Position numbers and translations under genes: made by a program. Positions 61,273 through 63,213 of a stretch of DNA of 64,000 bases are shown here, one piece after another. The DNA is taken from contig CAZQWQ010000072.1 of assembly GCA_964596925.1 (NCBI GenBank), positions 576,305 to 640,304 of the forward strand, given 5' to 3'. The stretch is from an uncultured Gemmatimonadaceae bacterium (GTDB taxonomy: Bacteria; Gemmatimonadota; Gemmatimonadetes; Gemmatimonadales; GWC2-71-9). The notes beneath the pieces are model-generated. The model made no database searches and was not told the origin of the DNA. It worked only from the letters and a program-made list of their open reading frames with translations. Each line of letters opens with the position of its first letter. The stretch's first letter is position 1.

Positions 61273-61356
61273 CTAGACGCCCAGACGCCAAGACGTCCAG
61301 TCGCCTAGGTACTACAGGCTGCTCACTCCTAGGCGTCTCGGCGTCTGCACGTCTAG
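61273..61356. repeat. AGACGC-unit palindromic element, copy A (tRNA spacer)
   Basis: CTAGACGC-C-CAGACGC-CA-AGACGTC...CGCCTAGG [loop] CCTAGGCG...GCGTCTG-CAC-GTCTAG. The arms are imperfect reverse complements. Confidence 0.6.
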
Positions 61357-61370
61357 GCGTCCAGCAGTGA

Positions 61371-61444
61371 TGCGCCCAGGAGGAGTCGAACCCCCAACCT
61401 TCTGATCCGTAGTCAGACGCTCTATCCAGTTGAGCTATGGGCGC
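61371..61444 (-). tRNA. tRNA-Arg (anticodon ACG)
   Basis: GCGCCCA/TGGGCGC acceptor, TCTGA-CTACGGA-TCAGA anticodon arm, TTCGACT T-loop. Confidence 0.9.
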
Positions 61445-61446
61445 GA

Positions 61447-61523
61447 TGGTGGGCGGTACTAGATTCGAACTAGTGACCTCTACGATGTCAACGTAGCGCT
61501 CTAACCAGCTGAGCTAACCGCCC
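61447..61523 (-). tRNA. tRNA-Val (anticodon GAC), 3' CCA encoded
   Basis: GGGCGGT/ACCGCCC acceptor, CTACG-TTGACAT-CGTAG anticodon arm, followed by an encoded A-CCA. Only 2 nt separate it from the downstream tRNA-Arg. Confidence 0.9.
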
Positions 61524-61529
61524 AAACCG

Positions 61530-61622
61530 CTAGACGCACAGACGCGATAGACGCAACAGACGCACAGCGTGCTCCTCAGGAACCCCTGCGCGTCTGGGCG
61601 TCTGCTGCGTCTGTGCGTCTAG
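61530..61622. repeat. AGACGC-unit palindromic element, copy B (tRNA spacer; best-preserved copy)
   Basis: Left arm CTAGACGC-A-CAGACGC-GA-TAGACGC-AA-CAGACGC. Right arm GCGTCTG-G-GCGTCTG-CT-GCGTCTG-T-GCGTCTAG. The outer 16 nt are perfectly complementary. Confidence 0.7.
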
Positions 61623-61628
61623 TAGTAG

Positions 61629-61702
61629 TAGCGGGGGTGGGATTTGAACCCACGACCTCCGGGTTATGAGCCCGGCGAGCTACCAGACTGCTCCACCCCG
61701 CG
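61629..61702 (-). tRNA. initiator tRNA-fMet (anticodon CAT)
   Basis: 5' CGCGGGG with an unpaired 1:72 position (C1 opposite U72). Three G-C pairs (GGG/CCC) close the CTCATAA anticodon loop. TTCAAAT T-loop. Confidence 0.85.
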
Positions 61703-61729
61703 TCGTTGGTGTGCTGCGGTTCCGGTCAG

Positions 61730-61802
61730 AGCGGGAAACGGGACTCGAACCCGCGACCCCAACCTTGGCAAGGTTGTGCTCTACCAACTGAGCTATTCCC
61801 GC
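61730..61802 (-). tRNA. tRNA-Gly (anticodon GCC)
   Basis: GCGGGAA/TTCCCGC acceptor, CAACC-TTGCCAA-GGTTG anticodon arm, discriminator U. Confidence 0.9.
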
Positions 61803-61864
61803 GCGCTGCAAATCTAACCGCCCAGTGGCGTGACTTCTACCGCAGCCCGTCCGTCATCACGAAA

Positions 61865-61937
61865 TGGAGGCGAGGGGGATCGAACCCCTGACCTCGTGAA
61901 TGCCATTCACGCGCTCTCCCAACTGAGCTACGCCCCC
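61865..61937 (-). tRNA. tRNA-Ala (anticodon GGC)
   Basis: GGGGGCG/CGCCTCC acceptor with the G3:U70 identity pair, and a CGTGA-ATGGCAT-TCACG anticodon arm. Confidence 0.9.
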
Positions 61938-61980
61938 GCTATATTAGCCGCCCCCGTAAGACCCCCGACGGGAACACGGC

Positions 61981-62009
61981 ATCTTATCGGGGCGTTCTAA
62001 CGGTGTCAA
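61981..62009 (-). promoter_or_regulatory. candidate sigma-70-type promoter of the tRNA operon
   Basis: Minus strand reads TTGACA-N17-TAAGAT. The -10 element ends about 43 nt upstream of tRNA-Ala. Confidence 0.5.
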
Positions 62010-62070
62010 GCGAAATTGTGAACTTTTCGCGCCGTGTTTGGTATCACGGGGCGATCAAATCGAGTGTCAC

Positions 62071-63108
62071 ATGCCCAAGTCTAGGCGCCGCACCAAAACC
62101 GCTTCCGCCAAGGCCAACCCCAAGGCCAAGGCCAGTGCCAAGCGGCCCGGTCGCGTGGTGCCCGCCAAGCCGGTGAAGCCCGCCCCGGTCAAGGCGGCAC
62201 CGCCCGCCGCGGCGGCCAAGGCGAAGCCCGGGCGCAAGCGCGGCCGGCGGCGCGGGCTCATGTCCGGGCTGGGGCACGAGCACGAGCGCGATATCCTCGA
62301 TCAGTACCTGCACGAGGTGAGCAAGACCCCGTTGCTCACTCAGAAGGAAGAGATCGCCCTGGCCCGGAAGGTGCGCGCCGGAGACCAGGAATCGATGCAG
62401 GAACTCGTCAAGCGCAACCTGCGCTTCGTGATCTCTGTCGCCAAGAAGTACCAGAACCGCGGGTTGCCGCTCACCGATCTGATCGGGGAGGGGAACGTCG
62501 GGCTGCTCACGGCCGCCCGGAAGTTCGACCCTGACCAGGGCGTGAAGTTCATCTCCTATGCGGTGTGGTGGATCCGCCAGGCGATTCTCGCCGCCCTGGC
62601 GCGCCAGGGCCGCACGGTCCGCGTGCCGCTGAACCGGACCGCCGACCTGTCGCGCATCGTGCGGACGGCGGAGTATCTGCGGCAGACGCTGCGGCGCGAG
62701 CCCACGCCCGAAGAGATCGCCGACGCGACCAAGTTGTCGCTCGAGGTGGTCCAGTCGCTCGCGGCGCTCAACACCGGCGACGTGCGGCTCGATGCGCCGC
62801 TCGATCCCGACGGGGACCGCTCGTTGATCGAGCGCTTCATCGCCGAGGACTTGCCCGACACGGAAGATCAGGCGATGGACCGCTTCCTGTCGGACGAGAT
62901 CGAGACGGCTCTGAACACGCTGCAGCGCCGTGACGCCAAGGTCCTGCGGCTGTATTTCGGGCTCGACGGCGGGCGGGAGCACACCCTCGAGGAAATCGGC
63001 GGCATGCTCGGGGTGACGCGTGAGCGGGTGCGTCAGCTGCGCGACCGCGCCCTGAAACGGTTGCGGGAAGGGGACGTGGGGAAGGCGCTCGCGAGCTTCG
63101 CCGCGTGA
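62071..63108 (+). CDS. rpoD: RNA polymerase sigma-70 factor, RpoD/SigA family (Bacteroidetes-like short primary-sigma type) with a basic Lys/Ala/Pro-rich N-terminal tail
   Basis: The ATG at 62071 is residue 12 of the track ORF. Regions present: 1.2 'ILDQYLHEVSKTPLLT', 2 'LVKRNLRFVISVAKKYQNRGLPLTDLIGEGNVGLLTAARKFD...FISYAVWWIRQAI', and 4.2 'LEEIGGMLGVTRERVRQLRDRALKRLR'. Confidence 0.85.
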   Translation: MPKSRRRTKTASAKANPKAKASAKRPGRVVPAKPVKPAPVKAAPPAAAAKAKPGRKRGRRRGLMSGLGHEHERDILDQYLHEVSKTPLLTQKEEIALARKVRAGDQESMQELVKRNLRFVISVAKKYQNRGLPLTDLIGEGNVGLLTAARKFDPDQGVKFISYAVWWIRQAILAALARQGRTVRVPLNRTADLSRIVRTAEYLRQTLRREPTPEEIADATKLSLEVVQSLAALNTGDVRLDAPLDPDGDRSLIERFIAEDLPDTEDQAMDRFLSDEIETALNTLQRRDAKVLRLYFGLDGGREHTLEEIGGMLGVTRERVRQLRDRALKRLREGDVGKALASFAA

Positions 63109-63112
63109 AATA

Positions 63113-63213
63113 CTAGACGCACTGACGCAGCAGACGGACAGCGGGTGACAGGTATCGGTGGCCAGGGGTTCCCTGGCCACTCTTGCTGTTCACCTCTGTG
63201 CGCCTGTGCGTCT
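63113..63213. repeat. AGACGC-unit palindromic element, copy C (degenerate; downstream of rpoD)
   Basis: It starts with CTAGACGC-A-CTGACGC-AG-CAGACGG, 5 nt after the rpoD stop, and ends with ...GTGCGC-CTGT-GCGTCT. The centre holds a perfect 10-bp hairpin. Confidence 0.5.
63158..63190 (+). terminator. rpoD terminator hairpin
   Basis: GTGGCCAGGG-gtt-CCCTGGCCAC is a perfect 10-bp stem, followed by 'TCTTGCTGTT'. Confidence 0.55.

Follow-up and report, generated by a model that had tools for sequence, protein, structure and literature searches.

Three palindromic elements, here called copies A, B and C, were analysed in a window of 64,000 nucleotides (contig C72, positions 576305-640304) from the draft genome of an uncultured Gemmatimonadaceae bacterium (4.10 Mb, 92 contigs, 67% G+C). 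Each element is a DNA palindrome in which both arms are tandem arrays of a unit of 7-9 nt, here (C/T)AGACGC, and copies are confined to places tolerating extra DNA: tRNA spacers, the neighbourhood of stop codons, the surroundings of terminator hairpins and in-frame protein linkers. We favor, with moderate confidence, the reading that A, B and C are DNA-level and probably selfish repeat-armed hairpins, comparable to the inverted heptamer arrays of Xanthomonas and to rRNA intervening sequences, and that the hairpin in the transcript is a tolerated by-product. The elements and their immediate surroundings are as follows (window coordinates, with the strand where one applies).

61192..61937, minus strand: tRNA operon Ala-Gly-Met-[B]-Val-Arg-[A]-Pro, host of copies A and B (ARAGORN, Rfam)
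61273..61365: copy A, AGACGC-unit hairpin in the tRNA-Pro(CGG)/tRNA-Arg(ACG) spacer (-60.8 kcal/mol, z -5.9)
61530..61622: copy B, AGACGC hairpin of 4+4 units in the tRNA-Val(GAC)/tRNA-Met(CAT) spacer (-73.2 kcal/mol, z -10.1)
61981..62009, minus strand: promoter-like site TTGACA-17-TAAGAT upstream of tRNA-Ala (consensus match only)
62071..63108, plus strand: rpoD-like sigma factor gene, 3' end adjoining copy C
63113..63213: copy C, degenerate AGACGC and GAACAG arms around the rpoD terminator hairpin (z -5.4)
63157..63181, plus strand: core of copy C, a conserved rpoD hairpin resembling an intrinsic terminator (GGTGGCCAGGGGTTCCCTGGCCACT and a T-rich tail; consensus scan, relatives)

The sequence and the folding of all three elements agreed with the original prediction, which had been made from the letters alone and had described AGACGC palindromes at these positions; small corrections were needed. 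The left arm of copy B reads CTAGACGC-a-CAGACGC-ga-TAGACGC-aa-CAGACGC and the right arm GCGTCTG-g-GCGTCTG-ct-GCGTCTG-t-GCGTCTAG, that is, four (C/T)AGACGC units facing four GCGTCT(G/A) units. The outermost 16 nt are complementary without mismatch, as had been described, and the six-base cores are paired at 24 of 24 positions, with the linkers mismatched in 2 of 3. In copy A, first delimited as 61273-61356, each arm contains two to three units; the inner CGCCTAGG/CCTAGGCG stem that had been noticed is there, and in the fold the pairing extends to about 61365 through a register slip of one unit. Copy C was correctly described as degenerate units with a central hairpin (10-11 bp), and its start was corrected from 5 to 4 nt past the rpoD stop codon (TGA, 63106-63108). 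The folding energies (-65.0 kcal/mol for copy C, the others as listed) lie far below shuffle means of about -38 to -44 kcal/mol, and in each case none of 200 shuffles was equally stable.

The placement of A and B inside a minus-strand tRNA operon, in the Pro/Arg and Val/Met spacers, was borne out by ARAGORN and, for the operon, by Rfam as well. A permissive Rfam scan of positions 59000-64000 returned only the tRNAs and chance microRNA-like matches on copy B, and no family for the elements. None of the three contains an open reading frame (ORF). Copies A and B have no U tract, B being followed by GGTTT on the tRNA strand, and only the core of copy C passes the rule of the terminator scan. The site TTGACA-17-TAAGAT is, from its match to the consensus, the likely promoter of the operon from which A and B would be transcribed. 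In the same operon, tRNA-Val and tRNA-Arg are separated by just 2 nt (61445-61446).

About 19 AGACGC loci were found in the genome by hexamer clustering and blastn-short, and more in relatives; the elements thus form a genuine dispersed intergenic family of uniform size, as the original prediction had supposed. Twelve of these loci are hairpins, invariably with forward units followed by reverse units, and seven consist of a single arm. Many copies have an inner segment in common, which gives the arm consensus CTAGACGC-nn-AGACGC-ACAGTGGTGAACAGG, the unit often being followed inward by ACAGTGGTGAACAGG; unit number, linkers and loops vary from copy to copy. The hexamer AGACGC is not enriched in the whole window (53 occurrences, 61.6 expected), and what is non-random is its clustering and its forward-then-reverse arrangement. 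Genome-wide, AGACGCNNAGACGC occurs 23 times and its reversed-pattern control once.

The architecture is not tied to this unit. A census blind to the unit, which required a tandem 6-mer array followed by an array of its reverse complement, recovered 61 loci versus 16 in a first-order Markov shuffle, the surplus being intergenic and the intergenic loci clearly real. The same architecture was built from CAGGTGT, AGTCGTC, CAGCCGT, (A/G)TCGGCT, GGCGGAT, GTGCGTR, GGATTGC, GAGCCGCC and GGCGTAAG units. With about ten unit types of one architecture in this genome, AGACGC thus represents a single spelling within a general class. A universal rule of a G-rich or purine-rich 5' arm, hinted at by the first census, was dropped, since skews of both signs were found.

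Five of the 19 AGACGC loci lie in spacers between tRNAs, which account for 1,282 of 398,523 non-coding nucleotides, so that 0.06 loci would be expected there (binomial, about 4e-9). Two additional loci adjoin a tRNA, and the remaining 12 all lie between -6 and +45 nt from the 3' end of a gene. Hairpins of the other unit families typically lie 2-13 nt past a stop codon, between co-directional or convergent genes; of the roughly 30 intergenic hairpins with tandem units, whatever the unit type, that this genome has, only one or two lie between divergent genes. In four proteins, a hairpin of another spelling is read in frame within an interdomain linker:

C64:76455-76551: GGGGGAA units, in an NAD synthetase (NadE)
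C73:36291-36378: GAAGGGG units, in a fused aldehyde dehydrogenase
C72:510273-510346: GGCGGAT units, in a GlcF-like iron-sulfur protein
C69:288486-288546: CAGGTGT units, in an FG-GAP/ASPIC protein

Two loci deserve separate mention. At C64:180816-180880, 3-5 nt past a GroEL gene (end ...GGMGGMY), four perfect AGACGC units stand without a right arm and are followed by a 104-residue ORF without Pfam match and then by a canonical terminator. At C61:17935-18200, adjoining tRNA-Pro(GGG), a tandem duplication of about 127 nt contains the left-arm sequence AGACGCacAGACGC and a fragment resembling the end of that tRNA, as an integration site or the remnant of one would.

Nineteen relatives yielded the orthologous tRNA operon, whose spacers revealed how fast the spelling changes. 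A hairpin of 50-134 nt occupies the Met|Val spacer, the site of copy B, in every genome of the same genus having that spacer (14 relatives). Its arms are built of AGACGC in this genome, L004 and L007, of TAGACGG in L002 and L010, of ATTGCGG in seven genomes and of GGACGGGC in three; in another family, the Gly|Val spacer has CAGAGGCA units. Many of the tRNA-spacer hairpins of relatives are followed by 3-5 T. The Met|Val spacer therefore shows rapid turnover of spelling under a lasting architecture at an orthologous site. In a tree of the adjacent rpoD, the sister genome G019 has ATTGCGG where this genome has AGACGC, the AGACGC alleles at Met|Val fall in three non-sister lineages, and the L001 and L007 copies are alike even in their loops. 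From these relationships we infer that whole hairpin alleles are exchanged or replaced, for which the near-invariant flanking tRNA genes would be natural recombination anchors.

The other spacers of the operon are less constant. The Arg|Pro hairpin is present in some relatives and absent in others, and the Val|Arg spacer measures 2-4 nt in some genomes and holds a nested hairpin of 115-214 nt in others. In L006, L007, L012 and L014 the Val|Arg hairpins, of 210 nt, consist of a unique outer stem enclosing AGACGC units, then three GAGCCGCC units and then a core; L013 has the outer stem alone (67 nt). Hairpins either insert into the loops of older hairpins or are excised from them. In L016 and L018, which belong to a different family of the order, the distances between four tRNAs of this operon are just 1-4 nt; spacers free of hairpins can therefore be reduced to almost nothing.

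The 3' end of rpoD was compared in the same way. There, L012 and L015 have a bare intrinsic terminator, GGGGCCAGG-loop-CCTGGCCCC and a run of T, and behind it a conserved TTGTCCCG...CTAG segment. The same terminator hairpin, with AGACGC/GAACAG arms on both sides, occurs in this genome, L007, L008 and L011; in L013 it has the right arm only, and in L009 and L014 GACGCTAC-unit arms surround a terminator with a T8 run. The consensus scan marked the core of copy C as terminator-like. Judged by this comparison, copy C is a conserved, predicted rpoD terminator wrapped in AGACGC arms. In the well-supported clade (L013,(L008,(L011,L007,(L015,L012)))), loss of arms would be the simplest history. Bare, half-armed and armed states among close relatives argue against simple transposition: a single cut-and-paste insertion is unable to place arms on both sides of a resident hairpin, and the model of a simple miniature inverted-repeat transposable element (MITE), which the original prediction had raised, therefore fails for copy C. 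Downstream of copy C lies a permease-like gene whose start was placed at 63214 by the gene caller; the sequence conserved in relatives, ..CTAGctt.cagcccGTGATCGA.CGG (window 63214-63253), suggests that it starts instead at a GTG near 63251.

Some arm pairs in the genome stand far apart and enclose a gene; these full-length versions of the architecture contain a 23S_rRNA_IVP gene, in the manner of ribosomal intervening sequences. On contig C21, an ORF of 106 residues (C21:97785-98105) lies between a left AGACGC arm (97754) and right arms repeated three times in tandem (98267-98365); it matches PF05635 (23S_rRNA_IVP, an S23p-type four-helix bundle) with 85.7 bits; the sole solved relative of this IVP is the Xanthomonas pentamer 2GSC. 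All three strong IVP genes of this genome lie within inverted unit arrays, of three spellings (AGACGC, ATCGGC and GGCGTAAG), the ATCGGC-type IVP being at C72:392358-392672, and no transposase was found inside any long-range arm pair, the gene enclosed being IVP. At 30 IVP loci in 30 genomes of the order, the upstream flank was scored against the reverse complement of the downstream flank; the median was 35.5, compared with 19 for mismatched pairs, and 19 of the 30 exceeded the 95th percentile of that control. The IVP arms in the order are tandem units of 7-9 nt in many spellings; 70-100 nt separate the end of the left arm from the start codon, and 0-12 nt the stop codon from the beginning of the right arm.

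The spelling of the arms goes with the protein. The C21 IVP, armed with AGACGC, shares 76% identity with the IVP from another genus (L050) whose arms are likewise AGACGC, the next best match being 41%; TAGGGGC-armed and AGTCGAC-armed IVPs also pair by arm spelling, and IVPs with AGACGC arms make up a subclade of their own. The distribution of AGACGC arrays in the order is patchy: ten scattered genomes have 14-50, the rest stay at chance level, and outside the class there are none. An AGACGC-armed IVP was found in six of eight array-rich genomes, a figure that counts alone, since genomes with zero copies are unusable as a control: an armed IVP itself adds copies, which makes the comparison circular. 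Outside this genome such IVPs occur in G041, G059, G115, G121 and G162; identity to the C21 protein is 76% in G041, 81% in G115, 53% in G121 (partial) and 72% in G162, G059 having been left out of the comparison. Judged by these pairings, the pattern shows that the IVP ORF and its arms are inherited together as a single element, which does not imply that IVP acts on the arms. It is a reproducible link between arm spelling and IVP subclade, and it offers a concrete uncharacterised protein as a candidate. A location of the C24 copy in an rRNA operon was not upheld, as no rRNA was found at the nearby contig end. A reverse transcriptase was considered as a partner and set aside: one such gene lies on the small contig C11, away from every IVP. 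IVP may be akin to the Avd protein of diversity-generating retroelements, a kinship that the paper checked did not confirm.

A tentative and rather unlikely extension would make IVP, a small pentameric four-helix bundle, the trans-acting partner of the hairpins. Each IVP subclade would recognise, in single-stranded DNA or RNA, the tandem units that make up its own arms, with roughly one unit to a subunit, and would promote their copying or spread; IVP-carrying hairpins would be autonomous, and hairpins like A, B and C their non-autonomous derivatives. If true, a mobile-element system would operate here with no recognisable transposase, and ribosomal intervening sequences would be accounted for too.

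Selection on the transcript was assessed by wobble pairing and by covariation. For 27 tRNA-spacer hairpins, of which the transcribed strand is known, the left arm was aligned to the reverse complement of the right arm under wobble-blind scoring, A.C mismatches on the sense strand being the would-be wobbles of the antisense strand. Functional RNA stems are usually rich in G.U over A.C. No such excess was found on the sense strand, where isolated mismatches comprised 26 G.U, 23 A.C and 53 transversions (two-sided binomial, about 0.8). Compensatory change, by which the original prediction had proposed to compare the arms, is near absent: in seven orthologous ATTGCGG hairpins it accounts for 1 of 31 pairs, several pairs being broken (covariation term +0.39), and in three AGACGC orthologues for 1 of 30. 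With modest power, nothing in these comparisons points to selection on the transcript.

RNase III is the obvious nuclease for RNA duplexes of 30-40 bp. No RNase III domain was found in this genome by the PF14622 and PF00636 profiles, by a six-frame scan for the signature motif or by tblastn with an E. coli Rnc sequence; a weak tblastn match on C24 was rejected, being antisense to an acyl-CoA dehydrogenase. Among 150 genomes of the phylum, PF00636 matched in none of the 134 genomes of families f1-f8 and in 15 of the 16 genomes of families f9-f12, and this latter rate indicates that the search is sensitive. RNase III, a near-universal bacterial nuclease, thus appears to have been lost at the level of the f1-f8 clade. 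Processing by RNase III, as known for intervening sequences, was consequently rejected for this organism, in which no RNase III domain was found. The elements therefore persist in a clade that apparently lacks the enzyme which removes the ribosomal versions elsewhere. Loss of RNase III as the driver of the spread of IVP and hairpins was also considered and is not supported, because IVP occurs in f10, which has RNase III, and is missing from f6 and f7, which do not.

On the favored reading, the palindromes would be maintained and turned over by strand-symmetric processes at the level of DNA and not by selection on transcripts. In such processes units would slip, one arm would be copied from its partner, arms would be lost, and whole hairpin alleles would be exchanged or replaced, probably by way of the conserved flanking tRNA genes. 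The RNA hairpin in the tRNA precursor and at the 3' end of rpoD would be a tolerated by-product, acting at most as a block to 3' exonucleases or as reinforcement of the terminator. RNase P and the 3'-end nucleases, cutting beside the tRNAs, would free them without need of the hairpin, and duplexes of such length may do particularly little harm here, since the clade apparently lacks RNase III. Several points weigh against this reading. At Met|Val a hairpin of whatever spelling was found in all same-genus genomes examined, so a hairpin as such could be useful there. The unit cores are far better conserved than the linkers (in copy B, 24 of 24 paired versus 2 of 3 mismatched), which could mean sequence-specific recognition. 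In no case was an insertion observed together with its empty site and a target duplication, and the origin of new copies is a matter of deduction. The wobble and covariation tests are limited in power, since the orthologues are close, many stems are near perfect, and young stems generated at the DNA level would not yet bear RNA-level signatures. Moreover, the genes outside the window come from a codon-usage caller made for this analysis (3,672 genes, 90% coding), the coordinates of which are crude.

The elements could instead be functional RNA, serving as processing guides, barriers to 3' exonucleases or terminators in tRNA precursors and at mRNA 3' ends; any stable hairpin would suffice, and structure would therefore be conserved and sequence not. 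The constancy of the Met|Val hairpin within the genus fits this idea, as do the very stable stems, the position of copies 2-13 nt past stop codons, the terminator-like core of copy C and the 3-5 T behind many tRNA-spacer hairpins of relatives. Several observations speak against it: other tRNA pairs in these operons lie 1-4 nt from each other and do without a hairpin, the hairpins at Arg|Pro and Val|Arg come and go between close relatives, A and B have no U tract, and the same elements occur in frame within proteins. The balance of G.U and A.C mismatches shows no bias to the sense strand, compensatory change is near absent with orthologous pairs broken, and RNase III was not found in the clade. 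We regard a functional RNA element as possible, though unlikely. For the narrower proposal of the original prediction, a processing or stability signal selected in the tRNA precursor, the missing G.U excess, the scarcity of compensatory pairs (1/31 and 1/30), the turnover of spelling and the undetected RNase III are all adverse.

Classical non-autonomous transposons, that is, MITEs or REPINs (paired repetitive extragenic palindromic sequences, REP) moved in trans by a RAYT or by an IS5/IS630-type enzyme duplicating CTAG or TA, seem highly unlikely, in spite of the CTAG...CTAG ends, an arm consensus of about 30 nt common to many copies within and across genomes, a patchy and burst-like taxonomic distribution, and remnants consisting of an arm only. 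The only strong Y1-transposase gene (RAYT/IS200-like, 64.8 bits; C73:551425-551838) has on either side REP-like hairpins of its own, TCGCGGCTnnAGCCGCGA and TGTCGCGTAAAGCGACA (C73:551260-552100), a further copy of which lies at C73:561795-561921; a RAYT as mobiliser of the AGACGC elements was rejected on account of this different repeat. Long-range arm pairs enclose IVP and no transposase, the arms of copy C stand on both sides of a terminator native to the site, the copies are heterogeneous, and no target-site duplication, for which the original prediction had suggested looking, could be separated from the CTAG of the palindrome itself. The resemblance to REP elements, bacterial interspersed mosaic elements (BIMEs) and MITEs that it had drawn holds as a loose likeness; membership of REP/BIME does not, given the different repeat of the RAYT, about 19 heterogeneous copies and the CTAG ends. 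That the unit arrays are DNA-binding sites for a regulator or nucleoid protein, with the palindromes regulatory or architectural, is less probable still and would surprise us. Conservation of the cores above the linkers, the constant forward-then-reverse order and the typical number of about four units per arm would suit such sites. Against them stand the spacing of 7-9 bp, which does not match the helical repeat of DNA, the location at gene 3' ends and tRNA spacers and not at promoters, the different spelling at one site in sister species, and the presence of about ten unit types in one genome. In the broader form in which the original prediction had put it, an array of protein-binding sites is possible, with IVP as the candidate binder.

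Other repeats of the genome were observed in the course of this work. Short contigs carry, between small genes, recurring hairpins of 110-165 nt that start with GCCTAAC or GCCCAAC and end with GTTAGGC or GTTGGGC, and this arrangement resembles integron attC sites in a gene-cassette array. Two further abundant intergenic families comprise GTCCTCACCCCCTGACCCCCTCTCCC...GGGAGAGGGGG composite hairpins and GTCATCCTGAGCG..GAAGGATCTGC elements. Their positions are:

C12:143-278, C12:2090-2257, C26:2846-3007 and C26:3708-3871: hairpins of the GCCTAAC type
C79:1601-2338, C8:14-173, C22:11-119 and C70:4083-4247: hairpins of the GCCTAAC type
C64:163587-163757, C73:575252-575585, C73:609067-609185, C72:896280-896520 and others: loci among the two further families

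Repeat-armed hairpins are widespread yet little-understood repeats of bacteria, known from Xanthomonas, from Geobacter and from ribosomal intervening sequences, and cyanobacteria are also among the bacteria that have them. In annotation, such hairpins should not be labelled as tRNA-processing signals, small RNAs or terminators when evidence for these roles is absent. Among the known systems, REP and REPIN elements are likewise intergenic palindromes of about 100 nt that form dispersed families and often lie at operon 3' ends; the present elements differ in their low copy number, their heterogeneity, arms of tandem units instead of a single imperfect palindrome, and CTAG ends, those of REP being GTAG. 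The STRR repeats of cyanobacteria and the P6b stem of the Nostoc tRNA-Leu intron have hairpin arms of degenerate heptamers that change by slippage, and the Rickettsia palindromic elements are tolerated in frame inside proteins. These cyanobacterial hairpins and Rickettsia elements belong to other taxa and have other unit sequences and host sites than those described here.

Closer counterparts have been reported in three systems. Xanthomonas campestris and X. axonopodis each have 70-75 convergent pairs of GGGAATC heptamer arrays per genome, about 90% of them intergenic, lying on average 28 nt from the upstream ORF and 160 nt from the next one, and the arrays that lie between the same genes of both species differ in length and sequence (Rehm et al. 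2015, PMC4692102). As in the present genome, these are short tandem units, mostly about four per array, in convergent pairs able to form a stem-loop, which lie near the end of the upstream ORF, are rare between divergent genes and share sites with variable length and sequence. All four features of the Xanthomonas type (unit arrays, convergence, placement at 3' ends, shared variable sites) were found in this family; the differences are the AGACGC unit with its 8-9-nt spacing, which does not form G-quadruplexes, the many spellings per genome, the strong enrichment in tRNA spacers, and the arms around an IVP gene or a native terminator. The intervening sequence (IVS) in the 23S rRNA of Coxiella burnetii was described as a stem-loop of selfish character: its stem measures 28 bp, its tandem GACAGAT heptamers vary in number between strains, its loop holds an S23p (PF05635) ORF, and RNase III excises it; Leptospira and Brucella are cited there for 23S rRNA intervening sequences as well (Warrier et al. 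2016, PMC4990558). It shares with the present elements the terminal inverted repeats that form a long stem with tandem heptamer-like units, and the location inside a stable-RNA transcript. Copies A, B and C, in contrast, lie outside 23S rRNA, in tRNA spacers and 3' of rpoD, and their loops hold no ORF; the search of their clade detected no RNase III. In Geobacter metallireducens, the Gmet_H4xx elements occupy 49 loci, each with four GGGACCG heptamers in tandem (Aklujkar et al. 2009, PMC2700814). They too are multicopy arrays of about four short tandem units, between and within genes, but were described as single direct arrays and read as regulatory, with no paired hairpin or link to IVP reported (PMC2700814). 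The original prediction, which recognised the motif in no described repeat family, was therefore right about the spelling and not about the architecture: what is new is the AGACGC unit with its 8-9-nt spacing, set in an architecture already described in Xanthomonas, in the Coxiella IVS and in Geobacter.

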